A stretch of DNA of 64,000 nt, taken from an uncultured Acidimicrobiia bacterium. GTDB lineage: Bacteria; Actinomycetota; Acidimicrobiia; Spongiisociales; ZC4RG35. Positions 3,256 through 45,506 of this stretch are shown here, piece after piece; the first letter of the stretch is position 1, and each line of letters begins with the position of its first letter. Position numbers and translations under genes: made by a program. The stretch spans positions 9,288 through 73,287 of the forward strand of contig CAWIXU010000004.1 of the NCBI GenBank assembly GCA_963840175.1, given 5' to 3'. The notes beneath the pieces are model-generated. The model was given only the letters and a program-made list of their open reading frames with translations. It did no database searches and was not told the DNA's origin.

Positions 3256-4292
3256 GGGCTCGGGATGTCTCCGAGGTCGCTCCCATCCGACTTCGAGCAG
3301 GCGGCGCGCCTCGGCGCCGATCCCGGCACCGGCCGCGACTCGGACCGCGAACGTGCCCATGACCTCGGGGCGTTCGGTCGAGTTGCGGACCACCACCAAG
3401 GGTCGTTTCAAAACCGACACCTCTTCGGCGATCCCTCCCGAATCTGAAATCATCAACGCCGCCTCGGCCTCGAGAGCCAAGAAAGTCGCGATAGCCGATC
3501 GGTTCAACGACCATGAGCTTGTGCGAGCAGAGGCTCCGAGGCCGAACTCCTCGGCCCGGGCGACCGAGCGAGGATGCAACGGCAGCAGGACCGGCAGTGG
3601 CAGCGAGGCGAGCTCGATTCAGAATGGTCGAGTACGTGTCTCGCGTCGTCGACATTCTCGGGTCGATGAAAGGTCGAGAGGATGAAGCGGCCGCTTCCAC
3701 GCCGATACCGAGCCAGAATTTCTCCTACGATCCGTGGGAGCAAGGCGGCGACCGCTTCGACCACCGTGTTGCCTGTCAACGCCACCCGTCCGCCGCGATC
3801 CCCTCGGCGTGCGAGGTTGTCGACCGAAGTTGGCGTCGGGGCGCAACAGAGGTTGCTCAGGTGGTCGGTGACCACCCGGTTGTGCTCCTCGGGCATCCCC
3901 CAGTCGTGGCTCCGCAGCCCCGCCTCGATATGACAGAGGAAGACCGAGCGGGCGTTGGCGGCGAGGGCTCCGGCCGTCACCGAGTTGGTATCCCCTTGAA
4001 CGAGGACGGCACGAGGCTGCTGCTCGGCGAATAGTTCGTCGAGTGAAGCGATGGCCGAACCGATCTGTTGGCCGCGGCTGATCCCGCCGACTTCGAGGAA
4101 GGTGTCAGGGGTTGGGAGGCCGAGGTCGCGGAAGAAGACCTCAGAGAGGTTGGGGTCGTAGTGCTGGCCGGTATGGACGACGAAGGCGGCGTCGCCCAGC
4201 AGATGAATGATGTGGGAGAGCTTGACGATCTCGGGCCGGGTACCCAGCACGACCGCGATTGACTTGGGTGGGAATCCGTACTGGTTGGTCAT
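3190..4292 (-). CDS. wecB: UDP-N-acetylglucosamine 2-epimerase (non-hydrolysing), frame disrupted near the C-terminal third.
   Basis: N-terminus KSIAVVLGTRPEIVKLSHII...HTGQHYD. C-terminal pieces MISDSGGIAEEVSVLKRPLVVVRNSTERPE and SPYGDGSASQKSLEAL lie in other frames. These are typical WecB/MnaA motifs. Confidence 0.8.
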
Positions 4293-4325
4293 AACCTCGG
4301 CCGGGCATGCTACGGGCTCTCCTCC

Positions 4326-5200
4326 TTGTTCTTGAGCTGGCCCTCATCGCCCTCATCGCCTACAACCTGCGTTGTCGCTCTGCTTTGGATGGAGAAATCC
4401 CGTGACGAGGGCCAGCGGCAGTCGCGCAGCCACCGCTTCGTCATCGTGATCCCCGCTTACAACGAGGAGCGCGTCGTTGTCGCCCGGCCGGTCGCCGATC
4501 TGACACCACAACTAAGGGAAGGTGACGAGTTGTGGGTGCTCGCCGACCGATGCACCGACGACACGGCCGAGGTGGCGCAGGCGGCCGGAGCGCGCGTCGA
4601 CCGAACGCTCCGAGCGGGCCCGACGGAAAAGGCACCGGCACTGGCATGGTTCGTTGCCAAGCGACCGCTAGTTAGCGACGAGGCGCTCGTCGTGATCGAC
4701 GCCGACAATCGGGTCCCCGGCAAGCTCCTCGATCGGTTCGGCGCCGAACTGACCGACGGGCACTCGGTGCTGCAGGCCTACCTCGATGTGGCCAACCCCG
4801 ACGAGTCGGCGTTGGCGACCGCCTCGGCACTCTCGTATTGGGCTTCGAACCGCATGGTCCAGCTGGCGCGGGCCAACCTGGGTTGGACAGCCGATCTCGG
4901 CGGCACCGGCATGTGTCTGACTTCTCGAGGCGCTGAACGCACGCGGGCGGATTCGGGACATCGTTGGTCGAGGACCAGGACCTCGGAGTTCGCTGCTTTC
5001 TCGCCGGACACCCGGTCCGTTGGCTGCACGACGTTCGAATCGCCGATGAGAAACCTCCCACGGCCACCGTCGCTGTACGCCAACGGTCACGCTGGACAAG
5101 TGGACGTCGTCAGGTCGCTCGCCGTTGGTTGGAGAAGGTTGTCAGCCGAGCGACAGCCGGCGTCGCTTGATCTCGCGCTTGCGTCTGGTGCAACCTTCGC
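4326..5200 (+). CDS. Family 2 glycosyltransferase with a membrane N-terminus; frame disrupted.
   Basis: FVIVIPAYNEERVV, VIDADNRVPGKLL, then DLGVRCFLAGHPVRWLHDVRIADEKP and QRSRW in a second frame. These are the GT2 DXD and QxxRW hallmarks. Confidence 0.6.
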
Positions 5201-5458
5201 GGATGGGGATGGCGTTGCTCAGCGCCGCGCTGGCCGTGGCCTCGGCTCTCGGCGCGTCCTCTGCTTGCCCTGGCCGTTGTGGACGGCGGTTGCGCTGGTC
5301 CAGTTGCTCGCCCCGATCCCGTTTCTGATCCGCGACCGGGTGCCGTCTCGCTATCTGAGGAAATATCCGCTGCTGGCGTTGCTCCCACTGCTCAAGATTC
5401 CGGGCACGCTTCGTCGCAACCGGGAGTGGTATCACACGCCCCACGGGTTATCGGACGG

Positions 5459-7816: not shown

Positions 7817-9727
7817 TTGCGTCTGCCTGGAAAGCTGGAAGGAGCGATTTTGCGCTCGCCAATCAGACAACTCCTCGCTGTGATTTTGGCCTTCGGGCTT
7901 CTCGGCGCGAACCTGCCCGTCGCCCACGCGCAGACGACCGATCCGACGTTCACCGTCACCGGATCGGGATGGGGTCACATGGTGGGAATGTCCCAATACG
8001 GAGCGAGGGCGCTCGCCGCGAATGGATCTTCGGCTGCCGATATCACCGGCTTCTATTACGCCGGAACCACCGTGCGTCAAACCACGGACGTCGTTTCCAA
8101 CTTCATGGTCACCGATCCCGATCCGCTCTGGATCGGACTGTTGCAGAACCGGTCGACCTTCAACTTCCGCGTCGACGGCGCCGGACCGGTCGGCCTTTGC
8201 AAAGCCAACGACGGCGAGGGCGAATGTCCCACCCAATTCGCCCTCTCGGGAGAAACCTGGGAGTTCCGCGCGTTGGGCGGCGGTGCCTGCCAGTACTTCA
8301 AAGCCGGGGTGGCAGTTGGCAATCCCGGAACCTGTCGCGGGGCCCTGACCTGGGACTTTGGCACGGGAACGAAGATCTTCTCACCCGATAACGGGCGGAC
8401 ATATGCCCGGGGCATCATCCGCTTCCGTCCGGCCGGAGCCGGATTCCATGTGGTTCTCGAAATCAACATGGAGGGATATCTCTATGGGCTGGGGGAGATG
8501 CCCTCGAGCTGGCCGATGGCGGCGATGCAGGCCCAGGCGATCGCGGCGCGCACCTACGCCTTGCGACAGGCATTGCGATACGGGCCGGAAGAGACGCTTG
8601 ACGCCTCCCGGCAGGCGACCTGTTGGTGTCAGCTGGTCTCCACGGTGGCCGATCAGGCGTACGTGGGTTGGGGCAAGGAGGTGGAGTCGCAAGGAAACCG
8701 GTGGGTCGAGGCAGTCAACACCAGTGCCGGCCAAGTGATCACCCACCCCCAAGCACCGGACTCGACAGTGATCGTCGCCTACTACGCCTCCTCCACGGGA
8801 GGCCACACCGATAGGAATGTCGAGGGCTTGGGCCACACCAATCCCTTGCCTTATCTGGTGGCGACGCCCGACCCCTGGTCCGTGTCAGCCGCCGCGGCTA
8901 ACCCTTTCGCGACCTGGACGCGCACGCTGACCGCAGCCGAGATCGCCACGGCCTTCGGGCTGGAATCAGTCACAGGCGTGGAGGTGACCCGACGCAATGG
9001 CTCCGGTACGGTGGCAGAGGTCACCATTGCCGGCACGCTTGGCGGACAGTCGACACTTCTTGTGCGCAGCGGCCGTAGTTTTCGTGATGCGTTTGCGATG
9101 CGTTCCACTGCCTACGCGATCAGCGGCGGGAGCGGGATCGGGACCGCCATCTGTGACGGCGTACCGCCCCCGGCGGGGTTCACCGATGTCGCGGTCGGCA
9201 ACATCCATTCCGAGGGAATCAACTGCCTGGCCGCCCTGGAGATCACCACCGGGACCACCGCCACCACGTTCTCGCCCGCCCAGGCGGTGAGCAGGTGGCA
9301 GATGGCAGTCTTCTTGATCCGCACCGCTCACGCCCTCGGGATTGCGGTGCCGGCACCCGTGCCGCAGGGATTCACGGACCTAACCGGCATGGCTCTCACC
9401 ACCGTCGATGCGATCAACCAGCTCAAACAACTCGGGGTCACCTCGGGAACGACCCCGACGACCTTTGCCCCCAACGCCAGCGTGTCCCGCTGGCAAATGG
9501 CGCATTTCCTCACCCGTCTTTTCGCGATCGCCGGCGGCGCACCGGCCGGAGCTGGCGCAAGCTTCAGTGATCTCAACGGCCTGAGCCCCGAGACGATCGC
9601 GGCGATTGGCCAGCTGGCCGGTCTGGGGATCACGCTCGGGACGGGTCCCGGGACCTTCGGCCCCAACGACGTGGTCACCCGCGAACAGATGGCGACCTTC
9701 CTCACCCGCCTGATCCGGCTCCTTTAG
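7817..9727 (+). CDS. SpoIID/LytB-domain protein with three C-terminal SLH domains (a fusion of an amidase-enhancer domain to a cell-wall anchor).
   Basis: Signal peptide; GWGHMVGMSQYGARALA and YYASSTGGHTD (SpoIID/LytB motifs); three C-terminal SLH repeats (TFSPAQAVSRWQMAVFLIRT, FAPNASVSRWQMAHFLTRL, FGPNDVVTREQMATFLTRL). Continuous ORF. Confidence 0.75.
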   Translation: MRLPGKLEGAILRSPIRQLLAVILAFGLLGANLPVAHAQTTDPTFTVTGSGWGHMVGMSQYGARALAANGSSAADITGFYYAGTTVRQTTDVVSNFMVTDPDPLWIGLLQNRSTFNFRVDGAGPVGLCKANDGEGECPTQFALSGETWEFRALGGGACQYFKAGVAVGNPGTCRGALTWDFGTGTKIFSPDNGRTYARGIIRFRPAGAGFHVVLEINMEGYLYGLGEMPSSWPMAAMQAQAIAARTYALRQALRYGPEETLDASRQATCWCQLVSTVADQAYVGWGKEVESQGNRWVEAVNTSAGQVITHPQAPDSTVIVAYYASSTGGHTDRNVEGLGHTNPLPYLVATPDPWSVSAAAANPFATWTRTLTAAEIATAFGLESVTGVEVTRRNGSGTVAEVTIAGTLGGQSTLLVRSGRSFRDAFAMRSTAYAISGGSGIGTAICDGVPPPAGFTDVAVGNIHSEGINCLAALEITTGTTATTFSPAQAVSRWQMAVFLIRTAHALGIAVPAPVPQGFTDLTGMALTTVDAINQLKQLGVTSGTTPTTFAPNASVSRWQMAHFLTRLFAIAGGAPAGAGASFSDLNGLSPETIAAIGQLAGLGITLGTGPGTFGPNDVVTREQMATFLTRLIRLL

Positions 9728-11450: not shown

Positions 11451-11565
11451 GCTTACGAAGTATCAAGAACCGTTAACTACCGTCAAGTCCCTTAGAAACC
11501 TTCTTTTCGCGACTTCTGGATGCTTCAGCTTCTCCCCGGAGCGGGGATAGCGCGCGATCGCGTTT

Positions 11566-12126
11566 TCTTCCCCCGGAGGGGGGAGTACCCGAGCGAAGCG
11601 AGGGGGTAGGGGGCGTTTTCTCGAGACCCAGGAGCTCAACCCTCTTCTATTCCCCTCGAAAAGGAACTACTCGTTCAACATGGCCCGACCCCGTCACACC
11701 GACCTCGCCGCGAACGAGAGCACGGGAGCTTCAGAAACGGGATGACCGTCTCAGAGGCGCGGGTGTGGCAGGTGATCCGCGGCGGACAATGCGGCGCCCG
11801 GTTCCGTCGGCAGGTTCCGATCGGACGGTGGATCGTCGACTTCGCCAGTCTGCAAGCCACGACTGGTGCTCGAAATCGATGACGAGTCACACGACTGGCG
11901 TGACGAAACGGAACGCATCGAGTACATCGAAGCGGAGGGTTTTCCGATTTTGCGGCTGACAAACAAATACGTCGCCGAGGACCTCGGCGCCGTTCAGCGA
12001 ACGGTGAGCTTGTGGGTGGCGGAGCTCAAGGCAGGGCGAAGGCCGGAGTAGGGATCGCGTCTGGAGAGAACGCCCCCCTCGTCTGCCTCCTTCGTCGGCA
12101 GACACTCCCCCCTCCGGGGGAGAAAC
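11566..12126 (+). mobile_element. Copy 1 of a ~560 bp element bounded by ~50 bp imperfect G-rich terminal inverted repeats, carrying a disrupted DUF559 ORF. Extra partial inverted-repeat satellites lie at 11529-11548 and 12131-12150.
   Basis: Left end TTCTTCCCCCGGAGGGGGGAGTACCCGAGCGAAGCGAGGGGGTAGGGGGCGTT. Right end AACGCCCCCCTCGTCTGCCTCCTTCGTCGGCAGACACTCCCCCCTCCGGGGGAGAAAC, approximately its reverse complement. About 85% identical to copy 2 at 41559-42118. Confidence 0.7.
11680..12051 (+). pseudogene. DUF559 (Vsr/endonuclease-like) ORF of element copy 1, frame-disrupted in the middle.
   Basis: MTVSEARVWQVIRGGQCGARFRRQVPIGRWIVDFAS then shift, then LEIDDESHDWRDETERIEYIEAEGFPILRLTNKYV. Compare the intact copy at 41675..42043. 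Confidence 0.65.
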
Positions 12127-12175
12127 GGGAGATCCCCTCCGGGGGGAGAAATTCAGGTCTGGGGATGAAACGGAT

Positions 12176-14752
12176 TTAGCCCGAGGGTGGCGCAGGGGCG
12201 GCGGCCTGGCCGACGGTGATGTACACCGGGCTCTTGTACGTCATCGCCGTTCCCGGCCCGGGGGTCTGAGCGAGAACGACATCGACCTGGGCGGGGTCGG
12301 TGACCGGCACGTAGGTCGCGTACACGTCGACCCAGGTCCCAGTTGAGTAGATGAATCGGTTGATCGTTCGGTAGGCCTCGCTGATCGGTAGGCCGATCAC
12401 ACTCGGCAACGCGCCGCCAGGGACCTGGCCGTTCGAGACATATATACGAATCGGAAGCCCGGCTTCGACTTCGGCTCCCGAACCGAGCGACTGGAAAACG
12501 ACGGTGCCCGCGGCCTGCAGCGAGGGAATCGGGGTTCACGTTGGGGATGAGTTTGGCCTCGGTCGCCAACGACACTGCCTCGGCTTCGGTCTTGCCGATG
12601 AGATAGGGAACGATGGTGGTCGGGGGCTTGAGGAACGGCTGGAGCTCCTCTTCGGTCAGGCGTGGAAAGTCGAGTGCTTCGACATCGGTCAGCACCATCC
12701 GCATGAACTCGGCCCAGATCGGAGCCGGGACCGAACCACCGAAGACCCGTTCGTAATACTCACCGTGGATGCGAACGTTGCGCAGGGGAACCTGATCTCG
12801 CTCGTACCCCACCCAGACCGCAGTCGTGTACTGCGGAACGAAACCGACGTACCAGGCGTCGCGATAGTCCTGGTGGGTGCCGGTCTTTCCACCCTGGGGC
12901 CGACCGATGGCGGCTCGCTCGGCCGTTCCTTCCGCGGTCGGCACTTCGAGCAGCGGGATTCGCGCTGCCTCGGCGATCGGCGCGGCGATCACCTGCTGCT
13001 GCTCGACCTGGTGCTGGTAGAGCACCTGGCCGTCCTCGTCGAGGATGCGGTCGATCAGATAGGGCTCGGCGTAGAGGCCGTTGGTGGCGAAGGACGAATA
13101 GGCGGAAGCCATCTCCAAGGTCGAAACTGCACCGGTCCCCAGCACGATCGAAGGCACCGGCTGGCAGCGGTGAGGTGATCCCCATTCGGTGCGCGGTCTC
13201 CACTACCTTCTCCGGCCCTACCTGCAAGGAGAGCTGGGCGTAGATCACATTGATCGATCGAGAGGTGGCTTCCTGGAGGGTGATGCGGCCGGCGCTGGCC
13301 CCGGCATTCGACACGGTCCACTTGTTGGGATCGGGCCCATCCGAGCAGATCGTCGGGCAGGTCAGGATGCGAGGGCTCGACCCGTCATATGTGTTGCCGA
13401 GCGTGATGCCGTTCTCGAGCGCCGCGACCAGACCAAACGGCTTGAACGCCGAACCGGGGTTACGTCGACCCTGGACGGCGAGGTCGAACTGGCTCTGTTC
13501 GAAGGGGAGCCCCGAAGCCATCACCTCGACCGCCCCGGTCTGGTTGTTGACCATCGTCAAAGCTCCAGTTGGTGAGCAAGAGTTGGCCTCGGCGTACGAG
13601 GTCAGGTTCTCGATCGGCTCGCTGGGAAAGATTCTCGTGCAGAGTTGCAGGTTCTCTTCGTAGGAATAGAAGGGGAGCCACTCGAGCAGCATCGCATTCG
13701 CCGCTTGCTGCAAATTGAGATCGATGGTCGTTTCGATGGTCAGGCCCCCGCCACCGACGCAGTTGACATCGTCGGATGGGCAACCGAAGACCGAGATGGC
13801 GCGCTCCTCCAGGGTCTGGCCGAGAAAATCGAACTCGTGACGCGAGAGGTCGGACAGCTGCCGCATCACCTCGGTGCGCACGTGTTCCGCCTCGCCGCGG
13901 AACTCGATGTGCTCGAGCACCCCAAGGGGTCTTGACTTGGCGATCTCCGCCTGAGATTCAGTGGTCCAGTCCTGTTCGAGCATGAGGTCGATGACGTCGT
14001 TGCGCCGATCGAGAACTACCTCTGGATTGTCGCCGAGGGTCGTAGAGCGAAGGGTTGCGGATGAGCACCGCGAGGGTGGCGGCCTGATCCAGGGTCAGCT
14101 CGGACATCTCGCGGTGGAAGAACTCACGGGCCGCGGTCTTGACCCCGTAGGCGCCGGCACCGAAGTAGACCGAGTTCATGTAGAACTCGAGGATCTTGTC
14201 CTTCGAGTGGCGACGCTCGAGCTCGGCGGCGATAAACGCCTCTTTGATCTTCCGCTCGATCGTGACCTCGTCGCCGACGAAGACGTTTTTCACGACCTGC
14301 TGGGTGATGGTCGAACCGCCGCGGGTGTTGCCGCTGCGGAAGTTGTCGAGGGCAGCCGAGGCGATGGCCGGGAACGAGACGCCCTGATGGTCGTAGAAGC
14401 CTTTGTCCTCCGCCGCCAGGATCGCGTGTTGAAGGAGCAACGGCACCTCGTCGATCGGGGCCGGCTCGGAGTTGCGCCCGTCGTGGAGCTCGCCGATGAT
14501 TTCTCCGCTTGCCCATATCCGCGACACCCGTGACAGGTCGGGGAGGGTCAGAGTCAACGTCTCGACTTCAGGGACGTACTCGGCTCTTACCTTGTCGATG
14601 GCGGCATAGGCGGAGTTGGCGCCGAGGAAAGTGAAGAGGCCAACCCAGGTGCTGCCCAGGAGCGCGATCGACAGCAGTCCCGCCAGAGCCGGGAACCAGC
14701 GGCCACGACGCTCGCGCGCTTCCAGTTGGTGGATGAGGGATCGATTGGCCAT
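12176..14752 (-). CDS. ponA: Class A penicillin-binding protein (transglycosylase + transpeptidase + C-terminal PASTA); frame disrupted.
   Basis: N-terminal transmembrane segment; EDKGFYDHQGV and GGSTITQQVVKN (GT51); SAFKPF (SxxK) and KTGT in the transpeptidase part; PASTA-like C-terminus (12176..12409). Confidence 0.8.
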
Positions 14753-17799: not shown

Positions 17800-18630
17800 T
17801 GCCGACACACGGTTCCAGAGCGCATCTACGGCGCTCGGAGGTCCGTCGGGGCGAATGGCGAAGACATCTGCCAAGGCGGCGAACCAGTCGCCCGGATTAT
17901 CCAGCGTGGTTGAAGTCGACTCGTGCTCTCGACGTCGGGTGAGGACGCATCCCCGGAGAATGTCGGTCCCGTTCTCGAGTCGAAGCTGGGCGGTGACGAC
18001 TCCGGCAAAGCTCGATTCGGGGGACGTCGACAGGTGCTTGTGCCGTTCGCCGACACGCGTCCATCTCCACCTGGCCTGTCCGAAAGCTCATGCCCGAGAA
18101 GGAGCCGGTGGAATCGTGGGTGAAGTGCCAATCGCCAACCCCATCATCGGTCTCCTCGAAGCGAAAGGTCATTGGGTTCTGGGCATAAGTGCCCGAGATC
18201 ATTGGAAGCGGGTCGTATAGCCCGTCGCCAAGTCCCGCGTCCACCCACCAATCTCCATTCGGGTTCTCAGCCGTTGGGAGGTCATGGGCAACAAGCACCA
18301 GGTGATTCGACAACCACTTGACGTCGGGACCCTCGGGTCCATGTACGCCGCCGATGTGGCGGGTCACGTGATAGCCCAGCGAACCCAACACGAGGGATAA
18401 GGCTCCGTTCATCTGATAGCAGTAGCCGCCGCGGCTGTGGTTGGCGATTCGGTCCAGCGAGGCGGTCGGGTCGATGCTCCAGTTCTCGGACATATGAATC
18501 CACACGGATTCGTAAGGCACCCGTTCGACCCAAGCCCGATGGAGCCGGCTGCAGTGCCTCCGCGGAGGGAGGCTCCACCTCGACCCCGATGCGTCCTAGC
18601 GCCCGAACGACGTCCGGCTCTATCTGATGT
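17800..18630 (-). CDS. nat: Arylamine N-acetyltransferase; at least two frame disruptions.
   Basis: LGRIGVEVEPPSAEAL (N-terminus), VPYESV (IPFENL equivalent), and RGGYCYQMNG with the catalytic Cys, in successive minus-strand frames. Aligns by eye to the Mycobacterium smegmatis NAT N-terminus. Confidence 0.7.
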
Positions 18631-18656
18631 CTGAAATCTGATGTCTGATGTCTCAC
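18620..18656 (-). repeat. Inverted arm of the same repeat family (reverse complement GTGAGACATCAGACATCAGATTTCAGACATCAGATAG); overlaps the 5' end of nat.
   Basis: Direct reading. A possible GTG start for nat lies at the first base of the arm. Confidence 0.8.
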
Positions 18657-39293: not shown

Positions 39294-40273
39294 AAGATGA
39301 TCGCCGGTCTTGGCGGACAGCTGCGTTGGGCTGCCGAGCCTGACGCACCGCGACCCGATCCCGGTCCCGGGCGGGTCTGATTGTGGCCGGGATGGGCGGC
39401 TCGGGCATCTCGGGCGATTTGGTCGCGGTGCTGGCGGCGGTGCCCGGTAACCGTCCACAAGAGCTACGGGTTGCCAGCTTGGGCGCGAACCGGCCCCCGG
39501 CTCGTGGTCGCGATGTCCTACACCGGCAACACCGAGGAAACGCTGAGCGCCGTCGAAGCGGCGACCGGCCTTGGGCTGACTCCCGGCGGTGGTCACGCTC
39601 GGGAGGGAAGCTCGGGGAGATGGCCGCGGCCAACGGATGGCCGATCGTCACGGTGCCCGGCGGGCTCCAGCCGCGGGCCGCCCTCGGCTACATGCTCGGG
39701 TCGTCTGCTGCACCTGGTCGAGGATGCGGTCGATCTCAAGCCCGGCGATCTGGCGGCGGCGGCCGACCTGGTCGATCGATCACCGAGCGGGCTCGGGCAC
39801 GACCTGGCAGCCGACCTCGCCGCCGGACTCCACGACCGGATCGCGATCGTCTACGGGATCGGCGGTCTCACCGCTCCGATCGCGCAGCGTTGGAAGACCC
39901 AGATCAACGAGAACGCCAAATGGCCCGCGTGGTGCAACGCGATGCCAGAGCTCGATCACAACGAGATCGTTTCCTGGACCTCGTTGTCGGCGGTGACGAG
40001 CCGCCACGTCGGGATCATCAGCCTCAGCGACGACTCCGAGAGCCCCGGATCGATGGACGCTCGATTCCGCCACACCTCCCGGCTCACCGAGCACGATGTG
40101 CCCTGGGTCGGCGAGGTGTGGTCGCAGGGGGTCAGCCGTCTGGAACGGATGGTGAGCCTCTGCGCCATGGGAGACTTGGTCTCCTCGAGCTGGCCCAGGC
40201 CGGAGGCATCGATCCGGTGCCGCGATACCCGAGCTCGAATCGCTCGAAACAGCTACTCGCCAAGGAGTCCTGA
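39290..40273 (+). CDS. SIS-domain protein (bifunctional phosphoglucose/phosphomannose isomerase-like); frame disrupted.
   Basis: MAGMGGSGISGDLVAVLAA (SIS P-loop-like) and (V)YGIGGLTAPIAQRWKTQINENAKWPAWCNAMPELDHNEI in a second frame. Equivalent to the gene beside pmmA in mycobacteria. Confidence 0.5.
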
Positions 40274-40274
40274 A

Positions 40275-41526
<1,252 letters not shown>

Positions 41527-41558
41527 GCCGAGGCCGGAAGACCAGAAGACCGTTTCTG

Positions 41559-42118
41559 TCTCTCCCCCGGAGGGGGGAGTACCGAAGCGAAGCGGAGGGG
41601 AGGGGGGCGTTATCTCTTAACGACGACGCTCAACCCTCTTCTATCCGGCCCGAAAAGGAACTAGTCGTGAGTGGATGCCAAGACCTGGTCACACCAACCT
41701 CGCCGCGACGAGAGCACGCGACCTTCGAAAGGAAATGACCGTCTCTGAGGCCCGGGTGTGGCAGGTGCTGAAAGGCAGGCAATGCGGGGCCCGGTTTCGC
41801 CGCCAGGTCCCGATCGGTTGTTGGATCGTGGACTTCGCCAGCCTGCGGCCTCGTCTTGTGCTCGAAATTGATGACCAATCACATGACTGGCGCGACGAAA
41901 CGGAGCGCATCGAGTACATCGAGGCGAGGGGCTTTCCGATTCTGCGCCTGACCAATGAATACGTAGCGAAGGATCTAGGTGCTGTTCAGCGAACGATCAG
42001 CTACTGGGTCGCAGACCTCAAAGCAGGACGACGACCGGAATAGGTTTCGAGCTAGAGAAAACGCCCCCCTCGTCTGCCTCCTTCGTCGGCAGCCACTCCC
42101 CCCTCCGGGGGGAGAAAC
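41559..42118 (+). mobile_element. Copy 2 of the inverted-repeat-bounded DUF559 element (intact cargo ORF).
   Basis: Left end TCTCTCCCCCGGAGGGGGGAGTACCGAAGCGAAGCGGAGGGGAGGGGGGCGTT. Right end AACGCCCCCCTCGTCTGCCTCCTTCGTCGGCAGCCACTCCCCCCTCCGGGGGGAGAAAC. Collinear with copy 1. Confidence 0.75.
41675..42043 (+). CDS. DUF559 domain protein (Vsr/restriction-endonuclease-like fold).
   Basis: EARVWQVLKGRQCGARFRRQVPIGCWIVDFASLRPRLVLEIDDQSHDW...RIEYIEARGFPILRLTNEYV is a textbook DUF559 pattern. Confidence 0.8.
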   Translation: MPRPGHTNLAATRARDLRKEMTVSEARVWQVLKGRQCGARFRRQVPIGCWIVDFASLRPRLVLEIDDQSHDWRDETERIEYIEARGFPILRLTNEYVAKDLGAVQRTISYWVADLKAGRRPE

Positions 42119-42421
42119 CGAATTGGGAGACGTGGCCACTCCCCTGCAGGGAGAGCCGAAGGAGAGACAACTAGGCGGTCGACCAGCAGGGGTCGTATTC
42201 GCAGCCGAACTCGAACGGCGGAAGAGTTTGCGGGATCGCCAGCGCCAGCACAACCGTGATTATCGCGAGCACGAGAAAAGCGGTTAAGTCAGTTTTTCGC
42301 GAAGATTGATGGGTGAAGGCACTGAGGTCAGTGCAGACCTTGTACGAAACCAGGGTGATCGCGACCAGATAGAGAACCGTCACCGTGCCCTGCCCCGAGC
42401 CCACATGGGGCGATCATAGAA

Positions 42422-43585
42422 CTACGCCTCCCATACAGCGGGAACCGAACGCGGCTTGCGGAACACCAGACCGGTTGGTCCGTCGACTTCCTGGGCCAGG
42501 CGCAGTCCCGGCCAGTGGTCGAGGGCCGCGTCGAGAGCCGCCAGAGTTTCAAGCTTGGCGAGATGGATGCCAATGCACGCATGCGGACCTTCCGCGAACG
42601 CAAGATGAGTTCGAGCGTTGGCGCGATGAATGTCGAATCGGTCGGGATCGACAAAGACGGACGGATCGCGATTCGCGGCTGTCAAAGAAACGATCACCAA
42701 GTCACCCCGGTTGATCTCTGCCCCGGCCAGCTGCACATCTCTTGTCGCATACCGGTCGACGCGTCCTGCCGCTGGCTCCAACCGAAGCGATTCCTCCATC
42801 GCTTGACGGCCGAGCGACCGATCTTCGATGATCATTTGCAGCTGTTCGGGATGGGTGAGGACATGCCAGAAAAGGCTCGTTGTCATTCCCTCGCTGGTCT
42901 CGATGCCACCGAACATCATCACGGCGGCGTTCGAGACCACCTCTTGCTCACCCAGCTGCCCACTCACTTCGGTCAGAAGCCCGTGCTGGCGGGTAGCGCT
43001 TTCCCGAACTGCGCGCCCGAGATCGCCCATTGCCTCGTGGCCAGCTCCAGTGACGTCTTGACCGGCTGAGATTCGATCGACGTCAGCCACGATCCGCTCG
43101 TACCAGCTGAGAACCGTGTCGACGTCCTCATCGACCAGATCGAGGGCTGCAGTCACCACGGCCACTGCCAGAGGACCGGCCAGCTCACGACGAATTTCGG
43201 CTTGGCCGGTGTCCGCCAAACGTTCGGTAAGGCGGCGCGCCTCTTGATGTACTCGATCAACGAATCGCTCCTTGACTTTTGCATGGACCAGCGCTGCCGC
43301 GAAAGGATCTCGATGTCGACGATGCTCTTCCCCGTCGAGTGACAACATGCTCGGACCGACCACCTGGCCAGTCGAGAAACGAGGGTCATCAACCGTGTAG
43401 GTCTGTGCGTCGCGCATCACTTCAACACAGAGGTCACGCCGGGTCACTAACCACCCATCGAGGGCCGGAACCCAACTCACCGGCTCGTGAGCGCGCAACG
43501 CCGCCAGATGCGGATAGGGGTCACCAGCCAGCTGTTCAAGCGTGACGGCCGCGCCGAGCGGGAATGCCATGAAGCCAATCTTGTC
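42422..43585 (-). CDS. Cytochrome P450.
   Basis: FAEGPHACIG heme loop, EESLR, and N-terminus DPYPHLAALRAHEPVSWVP. The upstream 5' part of ORF 42422..44101 is antisense to comF. Confidence 0.8.
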   Translation of the reverse strand, partial: DKIGFMAFPLGAAVTLEQLAGDPYPHLAALRAHEPVSWVPALDGWLVTRRDLCVEVMRDAQTYTVDDPRFSTGQVVGPSMLSLDGEEHRRHRDPFAAALVHAKVKERFVDRVHQEARRLTERLADTGQAEIRRELAGPLAVAVVTAALDLVDEDVDTVLSWYERIVADVDRISAGQDVTGAGHEAMGDLGRAVRESATRQHGLLTEVSGQLGEQEVVSNAAVMMFGGIETSEGMTTSLFWHVLTHPEQLQMIIEDRSLGRQAMEESLRLEPAAGRVDRYATRDVQLAGAEINRGDLVIVSLTAANRDPSVFVDPDRFDIHRANARTHLAFAEGPHACIGIHLAKLETLAALDAALDHWPGLRLAQEVDGPTGLVFRKPRSVPAVWEA

Positions 43586-43609
43586 ACACCGTTCCGTCAT
43601 GGTGAACCG

Positions 43610-44173
43610 ATGCTTTGTGTGGGCTGCGGAAGGTTGGGCGATGACCTCTGTCGCGCCTGCCGGCAAAATCTGGTGGAGGCGCCCGACCGTTTGCTGGCCT
43701 CCGGATTGCTGGTTCGCTCGTGCTTCGAGCACACGGGCGTCGCCAAAACAGTCGTGCACGCCTTCAAATATCAGGGAAGCGATCGCGCAGGGTGGCTGCT
43801 TGCTCGAGCCCTCGCCTGCCTGCTGCCGCCGACGTGGCACTCTGGTGCCGCTACCTCCGCGAGCTGGCGCACCGTCACTTACGGAGTCGACCCCGCTCGT
43901 GAGCTGGCCAAAAAAGTTTCGTTGCTGACCGGCAGACAGATTTGGATGGGTTTGGAGCCACCATTGCACAGCTCCGCCCAGGCCGGACGCGTACGAACCG
44001 AACGCGACCCTCCGGCGTTTACGGTCAGCGAGGAGCCTCCCACCGACTTGATCCTGATCGACGATGTTGTCACCACTGGCCGAACCCTGATGAGCGCCCA
44101 ACGTTCGCTCGGCCAGGGCGACCGTCCAAAACCGGTTCTTTTGGCCCTGTCCGCGACAGCTACCAGTGACTAG
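43610..44173 (+). CDS. ComF-family phosphoribosyltransferase-domain protein.
   Basis: CVGCGRLGDDLCRACRQ zinc finger and LILIDDVVTTGRTL PRTase motif. Confidence 0.65.
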   Translation: MLCVGCGRLGDDLCRACRQNLVEAPDRLLASGLLVRSCFEHTGVAKTVVHAFKYQGSDRAGWLLARALACLLPPTWHSGAATSASWRTVTYGVDPARELAKKVSLLTGRQIWMGLEPPLHSSAQAGRVRTERDPPAFTVSEEPPTDLILIDDVVTTGRTLMSAQRSLGQGDRPKPVLLALSATATSD

Positions 44174-45426: not shown

Positions 45427-45506
45427 GAGACGTCAGACATCAGACGTCAGACATCAGACTGGGATTCCATCTGAAGTCTGAAATCTGATGTCTGATGTCT
45501 TCTCAC
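45427..45506. repeat. Imperfect palindrome of tandem GTCAGACAT-type units (33 bp arms, 16 bp loop) between the response regulator and secA. Candidate bidirectional terminator/REP-like element.
   Basis: GAGACGTCAGACATCAGACGTCAGACATCAGAC-tgggattccatctgaa-GTCTGAAATCTGATGTCTGATGTCTTCTCAC. The arms match those at 17741-17775 and 18620-18656. Confidence 0.8.

Follow-up and report, generated by a model that had tools for sequence, protein, structure and literature searches.

The window analyzed here, 64,000 nucleotides (nt) of contig CAWIXU010000004.1 from an uncultured Acidimicrobiia bacterium (contig positions 9,288-73,287; coordinates below are window positions unless a locus is named), contains, immediately behind ahcY, a discrete 567-bp unit at 41552-42118. 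This unit, denoted copy B, consists of a left repeat, a 57-nt leader, an open reading frame (ORF) encoding a predicted nuclease of the DUF559 family, and an inverted right repeat. A sister unit, copy A, is located elsewhere in the window. The features of copy B and its immediate surroundings are as follows.

41527..41551, + strand: left flank, from the ahcY stop codon to the element; a degenerate repeat of the small-ORF 3' end that forms the left member of an approximately 30-bp target duplication
41552..41617, + strand: left end repeat, with the terminal GTTTCT (41552-57) and block order C-G-G
41618..41674, + strand: leader, from the left repeat to the ATG; 57 nt, 68% identical to the copy A leader
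41675..42043, + strand: intact ORF of 122 amino acids, a DUF559 / Vsr-fold PD-(D/E)XK predicted nuclease
42054..42118, + strand: right end repeat, an inverted copy of the left end, with the terminal AGAAAC (42113-18) and block order C-C-G
42119..42170, + strand: additional, degenerate hairpin module (CTCCCCTGCAGGGAG .. GGAGAGACA) that separates the element from the small ORF

The left end contains the hairpin CTCCCCC-GGA(G)-GGGGGAG at 41562-41579, a small second hairpin region at 41582-41596 and a mirror G block, GAGGGGGG, at 41600-41607, within the inner arm GAGGGGGGCGTTATCTCT at 41600-41617. The right end includes the inner arm AGAGAAAACGCCCCCCTC, a C block at 42064-42071, the hairpin CTGCC..GGCAG and the hairpin CTCCCCCC-TCC-GGGGGGAG at 42096-42114. 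Folding tools, which model Watson-Crick pairs, predict these hairpins. Two pairs of inverted repeats link the ends, namely 41564-41580 with 42095-42111 (17 nt, 100% complementary) and 41600-41617 with 42054-71 (18 nt, 94%); both ends are about 65 nt long and, as single strands, pair into one stem of about 65 bp (z -3.3). The first-pass annotation of this DNA, which described a complete ORF with DUF559 features at 41675..42043 between terminal inverted repeats at 41559-41611 and 42059-42118, was correct with respect to the ORF and right within 7 nt with respect to the repeats, the arms of which reach the terminal GTTTCT and AGAAAC. Its statement that the element fills the entire space between ahcY and the P450 gene does not hold because the extra hairpin module and a conserved small ORF (42171-42404, - strand) intervene. 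The extra module probably belongs to the inserted DNA; similar extra terminal modules are present at copy A and at the comparison loci L003, L005, L006 and L212. The small ORF, which sits between the element and the P450 gene, shows 76% amino acid identity to its counterpart in L206 and is kept also in L212, L214 and L216. It encodes a membrane-type protein of about 70-87 amino acids with two hydrophobic stretches and the C-terminal sequence CEYDPCW, to which no family was assigned.

Scans for sigma-70 promoters and intrinsic terminators detected nothing on the + strand inside the element. The leader of relatives carries a conserved CTTG..N17..GAAATAGTG, the sole ground for suggesting an internal promoter, so that the leader may act as one. 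An Rfam search of 41300-42400 (E-values up to 1) identified no family, and in particular no HEARO/omega RNA, riboswitch or intron.

The only Pfam family matched by the 122-amino-acid protein is DUF559 (PF04480), with an E-value of 9.6e-25 and a score of 87 bits against a gathering cut-off of 20.6, the match covering profile positions 4-105 of 109. The nearest structure by sequence in the PDB is 3HRL, the uncharacterised protein NGO0050 of N. gonorrhoeae (E 1.4e-26). A Foldseek search started with the AF2 (AlphaFold2) model of the protein (predicted local distance difference test, pLDDT, 87) identifies the same entry with a template modelling (TM) score of 0.92, the homing endonuclease I-Bth0305I (3R3P) with a TM score of 0.70 and E 1e-3, and, lower, Vsr (1CW0; E 0.15). 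Residues E25, E64, D66 and H70 are invariant in 27 homologs and D53 is at least 90% conserved; with respect to the EDxHD catalytic set of the 3R3P type, E25, D53, E64/D66 and H70 are conserved and position 71 varies. As judged from the profile match, the model and these residues, the protein is a DUF559 member with a restriction-endonuclease-like, Vsr-type fold and is predicted to be a nuclease. It consists of a bare catalytic core without a separate DNA-binding domain, and its gene is intergenic, with no intron or intein context. No family among the PADLOC defence models was matched. The DUF559 family in question is carried by 34 of 72,556 plasmid records, mostly megaplasmids, and no homolog was found in a phage collection; thus, these genes are not typical phage or plasmid cargo.

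Copy A shares the organization of copy B.

11562..11623, + strand: left end repeat, with a motif match at 11567-11614
11680..12051, + strand: DUF559 ORF, open only without three single-A insertions (11713, 11733, 11854)
12063..12126, + strand: right end repeat, followed by an extra hairpin at 12127-12151

The two had been annotated as copies of one element, and their alignment bears this out: 41552-42118 is collinear with 11562-12126 not just over the ORF but through both ends, the similarity stops exactly at the repeat termini, and outside them identity drops to about 38%. The right ends are 95% identical over 60 nt and share one 33-mer with 100% identity. With the three A's removed, the copy A protein has no stops and is 85% identical to that of copy B, with a ratio of nonsynonymous to synonymous divergence (dN/dS) of 0.11 and a synonymous divergence (dS) of 0.81. 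Given this low ratio and a right end conserved far above the neutral expectation at such a dS, the protein and the ends are both constrained; judging from these comparisons, the unit is under strong long-term purifying selection that encompasses the protein and the repeat ends. The contrast that had been drawn between an intact reference copy behind ahcY and a decayed copy A is sound insofar as the ORF of copy B is intact, but the label "decayed" is unsafe because copy A differs by only three single-A insertions, which may be assembly errors, and single-base indels occur in ahcY of the same assembly. The window ahcY (40240-41526) contains about 8 such indels compared to the intact, 95% identical ortholog in L212, and a PGI-like gene (39381-40273) and a penicillin-binding-protein gene (12153-14752) are also split into several frames. 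Either the indels in the window are patchy assembly errors or the affected genes are pseudogenes.

Each end of both copies is composed of a C-run, a complementary G-run and a mirror G-run, with the blocks CTCCCCC / GGGGGAG / GAGGGGG. A finder for this three-block motif detects exactly four matches in the 64 kb, the two ends of each copy, compared to 0-1 in shuffled sequences, with the + orientation upstream and the - orientation downstream of each ORF.

41560-41607, + strand: motif match upstream of the copy B ORF
42064-42115, - strand: motif match downstream of the copy B ORF
11567-11614, + strand: motif match upstream of the copy A ORF
12073-12147, - strand: motif match downstream of the copy A ORF

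A search for 18-mer hairpins yields 4 matches against 0.33 expected, and a simpler scan for C-run hairpins returns the same four sites. The block order is that of the BoxC/PIT/TMECO "intrastrand triplex" motifs (Bergler 1992; Hoyne & Maher 2000; Holder et al. 2015, PMC4666352), in which a pyrimidine run must be followed by its complement and then by a mirror purine run of at least 6-7 nt; the window ends contain all three blocks. Both kinds of repeats are intergenic, multi-copy, arranged as singles or close inverted pairs, and linked to local rearrangement. The resemblance is architectural. Loop 1 of the window motif is 3-4 nt long, whereas loop 2 (41580-41599) is 20 nt long and holds a small hairpin of its own, compared to 3 nt in TMECO, and the window blocks do not match the TMECO consensus, CCCTCNCCC N3-6 GGGNGAGGG N3 GGGNGAGGG. 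Many homologous loci in proteobacteria do have loops of 2-3 nt, and proteobacterial DUF559 loci bear near-TMECO sequences (CCCTCCCCC..GGGGGAGGG..GGGTGGGGG). The published work on BoxC, PIT and triplex motifs reports no associated protein or mobility function (the 2015 survey, PMC4666352, notes that a mobility function had never turned up close to them and assigns neither a function nor a protein partner), whereas here a nuclease gene lies inside the inverted pair.

The same bracketed layout surrounds related DUF559 genes in many bacterial phyla and is found at almost all genes of this DUF559 subfamily. In 82 loci picked by protein pattern alone, from Acidimicrobiia, Acidobacteriota, Alpha-, Gamma- and Deltaproteobacteria, Chloroflexi and other groups, motif density is 3.0 per kb within 250 nt of the ORF compared to 0.136 per kb elsewhere in the same loci (a 22-fold difference), and a motif is found nearby in 66 of the 73 loci with complete flanks. 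The nearest upstream motif is + oriented in 48 of 62 loci (p 2e-5) and the nearest downstream motif is - oriented in 46 of 57 (p 3e-6); where motifs occur on both sides of the gene, they form an inverted "+ -" bracket in 32 of 46 loci. The median gap between motif and ORF is 50 nt upstream and 28 nt downstream. The block sequence varies by lineage, with CTCCCCCC in Acidimicrobiia and CCCTCCCCC or CCCTCTCCC in proteobacteria and Chloroflexi, whereas the layout is constant.

In E. coli K-12, the DUF559 gene ycjD is located 168 nt from TMECO no. 9 of the Holder 2015 list, and its stop codon overlaps a degenerate motif. The interval between ycjD and TMECO no. 9 (L085 4209-4422; E. coli K-12 1,351,208-1,351,421) contains a 39-nt duplicate of the ycjD 3' end (90% identical) along with motif fragments, which suggests that these are remnants of repeated events at the locus. 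In some phylogroups, ycjD stands in place of the eefRABCD operon. BoxC is said to have been first described beside envM (fabI), the gene on the other side of the ycjD locus.

Most repeats of the window type carry no gene, about 94% of the copies sampled in metagenomes being without an ORF. Metagenome contigs were scanned for the exact left-end 20-mer, and 68 repeats, each with at least 500 nt downstream, were sampled among the matches listed. Within this sample, 63 of the 68 have no protein match within 1 kb and two adjoin a real DUF559 ORF; of 67 repeats among the matches listed, the motif finder places 25 in inverted pairs whose members are 3-144 nt apart, and the other 42 are single. Locus L089 is an ORF-less version of the window element type that retains the left end, part of the leader (the segment CTCGAAAAGGAAC) and the right end, and folds at -69 kcal/mol (z -6.8). 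Nesting also occurs among the metagenome repeats, some of which sit in the loop of another; one such composite, a left-type repeat placed in the second-hairpin loop of a right-type repeat, was seen at L092, L097 and L106. Some metagenome repeats lie inside a larger inverted repeat, CCTGAGGTACGTAGCGCC.

The window additionally contains an AT-richer repeat of the TCTGATGTCTGA type at 18619-18653 and 45430-45500, the latter an inverted pair (AGACATCAGAC.. / ..TCTGATGTCT); simple repeats similar to this type flank some of the metagenome repeat loci. Nine copies of a 56-nt coding repeat (..CGCTGGCAGATGGC..), with a spacing of about 196 nt, are located at 600-1800 and 9200-9700, at least partly inside the ORF at 7817-9727, which has the look of a cell-wall protein with S-layer-homology (SLH) domains; the counterpart of this ORF in L223 matches SpoIID and, weakly, SLH.

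The history of copy B can be read from orthologous loci, which were found via AhcY homologs and are flanked by PGM-Trm112-PGI-ahcY on one side and ComF-HPF-response regulator-SecA on the other side. A synteny search based on the P450 gene found only L206 (83% amino acid identity) to be syntenic, and the 71-73% matches that were checked (L208-L211) lie in other contexts. The states of the locus are as follows, with AhcY identity to the window.

L220-L222, outgroups (AhcY 89-90%): ahcY is directly followed by ComF, with no P450 gene, small ORF or DUF559 gene
L214-L219 (AhcY 93%): an empty site, with the P450 gene and the small ORF in place, the stop codons of ahcY and the small ORF overlapping, and neither a repeat nor a DUF559 gene
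L212/L213 (AhcY 95%): the ends of the window element, sharing the odd TTCTGTCTCTCC, around a centre reduced to 95 nt of the ORF 3' end, in the opposite orientation to that in the window
L206/L207 (found through P450, 83% amino acid identity): a solo repeat pair and a DUF559 gene that a 1.26-kb cassette interrupts at about codon 62

The empty orthologous site shows that the unit is an insertion. About 31 nt of empty-site sequence is duplicated on both sides of copy B, 50 nt off the right end; the left flank at 41527-41551 aligns with the empty-site sequence GCCAACGACCAGCAGGGCCCGAGACCGCAA of L214, and the equivalent in L212 matches at 24 of 31 positions. The state of L212/L213 implies that the inverted ends recombined with each other and that an internal deletion came next. 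The copy A locus holds an intact DUF559 element in L223, which is on the same contig as the empty site of L214. The proteins of copies A and B are 85% identical, compared to 72% for A and L223 and 70.5% for B and L223. Under the simplest reading of these sequences, copy A would be the older resident and copy B the product of a later copying event from the A lineage into the junction of ahcY and the small ORF; copy B would then have been inherited vertically, remaining intact here and decaying in sister lineages. The unit is an old insertion that duplicates occasionally and has been copied one or more times in this lineage. The routes of decay shown by the sister lineages are inversion between the repeats, internal deletion to an ORF-less repeat pair, and interruption. 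The first-pass description of an inverted-repeat element with a DUF559 gene is therefore upheld by the discrete unit, the second copy and the empty site, although it missed both the BoxC/PIT-type ends and the general bracketed layout, and copy B, being the younger one, is not the reference in the evolutionary sense.

Several observations were made on the surroundings of these loci. The P450 gene and the small ORF (42171-44101) are themselves an insertion relative to the outgroups L220-L222, where ahcY is followed by a ComF-like gene and HPF. In L206, the closest P450 relative, the cassette (4147-5404) contains a DUF6941 gene along with two small ORFs, one of which faintly matches NikA; this may be a further mobile cassette of small size. 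Immediately ahead of the insertion point, the ahcY 3' end (window 41505-41526 / L214 5228-5248: GGGAGGGAACC / GAGAAGGAACC) resembles the element terminus GGGGGAG(G/A)AAC, and in L003 and L006 the full element is also located about 10 nt past a terminus-like sequence, which may reflect a target preference.

The reading to which moderate confidence is assigned is that the unit is the protein-coding form of a structured-repeat family, in which the nuclease acts on its own repeats and spreads them by repair copying. The predicted nuclease would act on the repeats that flank its own gene, recognizing a structure that forms when these are single-stranded or extruded, such as a hairpin, a cruciform, a fold-back or a mismatch. 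Recognition of a structure would be more plausible than recognition of a long sequence given that, unlike I-Bth0305I, the protein is a 122-amino-acid core without a DNA-binding domain. Its action would leave a nick or break, and repair through copying would spread or homogenise the repeat unit, with or without the ORF. Such an element would work in a mode like that of REP/RAYT or of a free-standing homing endonuclease, being a member of neither family. A wider proposal, which is offered tentatively as a possibility, is that DUF559 nucleases are the missing trans-acting partner of BoxC/PIT/"intrastrand triplex" repeats throughout bacteria, a Vsr-fold, REP/RAYT-like system that would recognize non-B DNA.

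A number of observations weigh against the model of a nuclease acting on its own repeats. Within the 64-kb window, the repeats occur only at the DUF559 genes, and the evidence of dispersal without the ORF comes from related metagenomes. The 20-nt loop 2 exceeds the loop limits of the triplex motifs (1-6 nt in the ITxF of Holder 2015; 0-10 nt in Hoyne 2000), so that a triplex is doubtful and a hairpin or cruciform is more likely, which is why the likeness is taken as architectural only; moreover, triplex formation was not found in vivo by Holder 2015 (PMC4666352). The Caulobacter DUF559 protein VsrA behaves as a methylation-linked repair or damage nuclease. In E. coli, ycjD is present in 3378 of 5426 genomes as one copy at one fixed locus, with no extra copies in inverted TMECO pairs and no evidence of activity. 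No short classical target-site duplication abuts either copy in the window, and a search for a flanking duplication at copy A found none. Finally, only one gain event is documented in the lineage and, with a dS of 0.81, both copies are old, so that there is no sign of recent activity.

Alternatively, the protein could be a housekeeping Vsr-like nuclease, linked to repair or methylation, and the hairpins could serve to insulate or terminate transcription (e.g., as U-less terminators that prevent read-through into a potentially toxic gene), with no mobility and with two copies produced by ordinary gene duplication. This explanation, which is regarded as rather unlikely, accords well with the strong purifying selection, the vertical persistence of both loci over a long time, the low copy number, the rarity on plasmids and lack of detection in phages, the functional tie of the Caulobacter DUF559 protein VsrA to a cytosine methylase, and the position of the left repeat 25 nt past the ahcY stop codon, where a terminator is expected. 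It does not readily accommodate the empty site with overlapping stop codons and the target duplication, which show that the whole unit arrived with its repeats, or the exact coincidence of the A/B similarity boundaries with the repeat termini. Equally difficult for a housekeeping role are the hundreds of ORF-less repeat copies, nested composites included, and the constancy of the three-block layout and orientation across phyla despite sequence change. Furthermore, a methylase is not a conserved neighbour in the loci inspected, and in E. coli, according to the summary of Maher's work given in PMC4666352, PIT motifs showed no terminator or promoter activity.

The prevalence of repeats without an ORF, their nesting in one another, the extra degenerate modules beside many elements, and the link between such motifs and local rearrangement drawn by Holder 2015 (PMC4666352) could instead point to an independent mobile or recombinogenic repeat family that gathers around DUF559 genes, or to an ORF that lands in repeat pairs, the nuclease being inactive on them. 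Such a passive association is considered unlikely given the approximately 20-fold enrichment per gene end over neighbouring genes of the same loci, and an orientation rule combined with fixed short distances to the ORF would be hard to obtain passively in many phyla; besides, the ORF and the ends move and diverge together, and all four motifs of the window are at the two DUF559 genes. Also considered, and very unlikely, is a classical autonomous transposon with miniature inverted-repeat transposable elements (MITEs), in which DUF559 would be the transposase that cuts at the terminal inverted repeats. Such repeats are indeed present, ORF-less derivatives exist (L212 derives from a full copy by internal deletion) and copy B has a flanking duplication. 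That duplication, however, is about 30 bp long rather than the 2-14 bp typical of transposases, and lies 50 nt from the right end, and none was found at copy A; the copies are very few in number and old; and no DDE, HUH, serine or tyrosine transposase was recognised, the Pfam match being to DUF559. To our knowledge, strand-transfer activity has not been described for a lone PD-(D/E)XK core of 122 amino acids; TnsA requires TnsB. An integron cassette, a CRISPR repeat (GTTTC..GAAAC termini), a retron and a group II intron were considered as well and rejected, there being no integrase or attC-only layout, no arrays and no reverse transcriptase. The empty site, the shared boundaries and the oriented bracket are explained better by the model of a nuclease that acts on its own repeats than by any of the rivals.

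Among known systems, this model invites comparison with REP/REPIN sequences and their RAYT, in which a low-copy, vertically inherited, selected gene lies between inverted repeats that are otherwise scattered as singlets or hairpin doublets. The arrangement typical of REP/RAYT, a gene flanked by inverted copies of a repeat that is dispersed elsewhere without the gene, is found here, with the dispersal seen in related metagenomes. The enzymes differ, RAYT being HUH/Y1 proteins of the IS200/IS605 type compared to the Vsr/PD-(D/E)XK fold here, and so do the repeats, which are G/C-run three-block motifs rather than REP palindromes. With the EDxHD homing endonuclease I-Bth0305I (PDB 3R3P; Taylor et al. 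2011, PMC3239194), the element shares a predicted Vsr-type core, the proposed character of a selfish gene that persists by DNA cutting, and an ORF-less site counterpart. I-Bth0305I, however, has N-terminal NUMOD/helix-turn-helix (HTH) DNA-binding modules and resides in a group I intron in recA (PMC3239194), whereas the window protein is a bare core between inverted repeats, and the ORF-less form in L212, where the polarity is readable, arose by deletion rather than being an uninvaded target. The window protein shares its family with NGO0050 (3HRL; E 1.4e-26; TM score 0.92 for the fold) and with E. coli YcjD (NCBIfam PRK09767, 60 bits), which are of similar size, although it is below the equivalog cut-off for YcjD (60 compared to 218 bits). 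Vsr and Caulobacter VsrA, the latter with a DUF559 domain, have the common superfamily fold and similar acidic and histidine residues; the similarity to Vsr is weak (Foldseek E 0.15), there is no adjacent cytosine methylase here, and Vsr genes are not described as bracketed by repeats. Full-text searches of the open-access literature found no paper linking DUF559 to BoxC/PIT/triplex repeats, and an earlier description outside that literature is possible.

Taken alone, the window offers a well-documented old insertion for which gain, duplication, inversion and decay are reconstructed. The BoxC/PIT/triplex motifs, first recognised in the early 1990s, are present in hundreds of genomes, and the very large DUF559 family has hardly any function assigned to it; the reproducible, oriented bracket, conserved across phyla, joins these two open questions, on the repeats and on DUF559, into one testable hypothesis. 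If the hypothesis is correct, a new enzyme class would join the few systems that make and maintain short interspersed repeats in bacteria, and a small structure-specific nuclease would become available. If, furthermore, DUF559 proteins are the partner of the BoxC/PIT repeats, this would account for the spread and uniformity of these repeats and for the instability of the loci that bear them.

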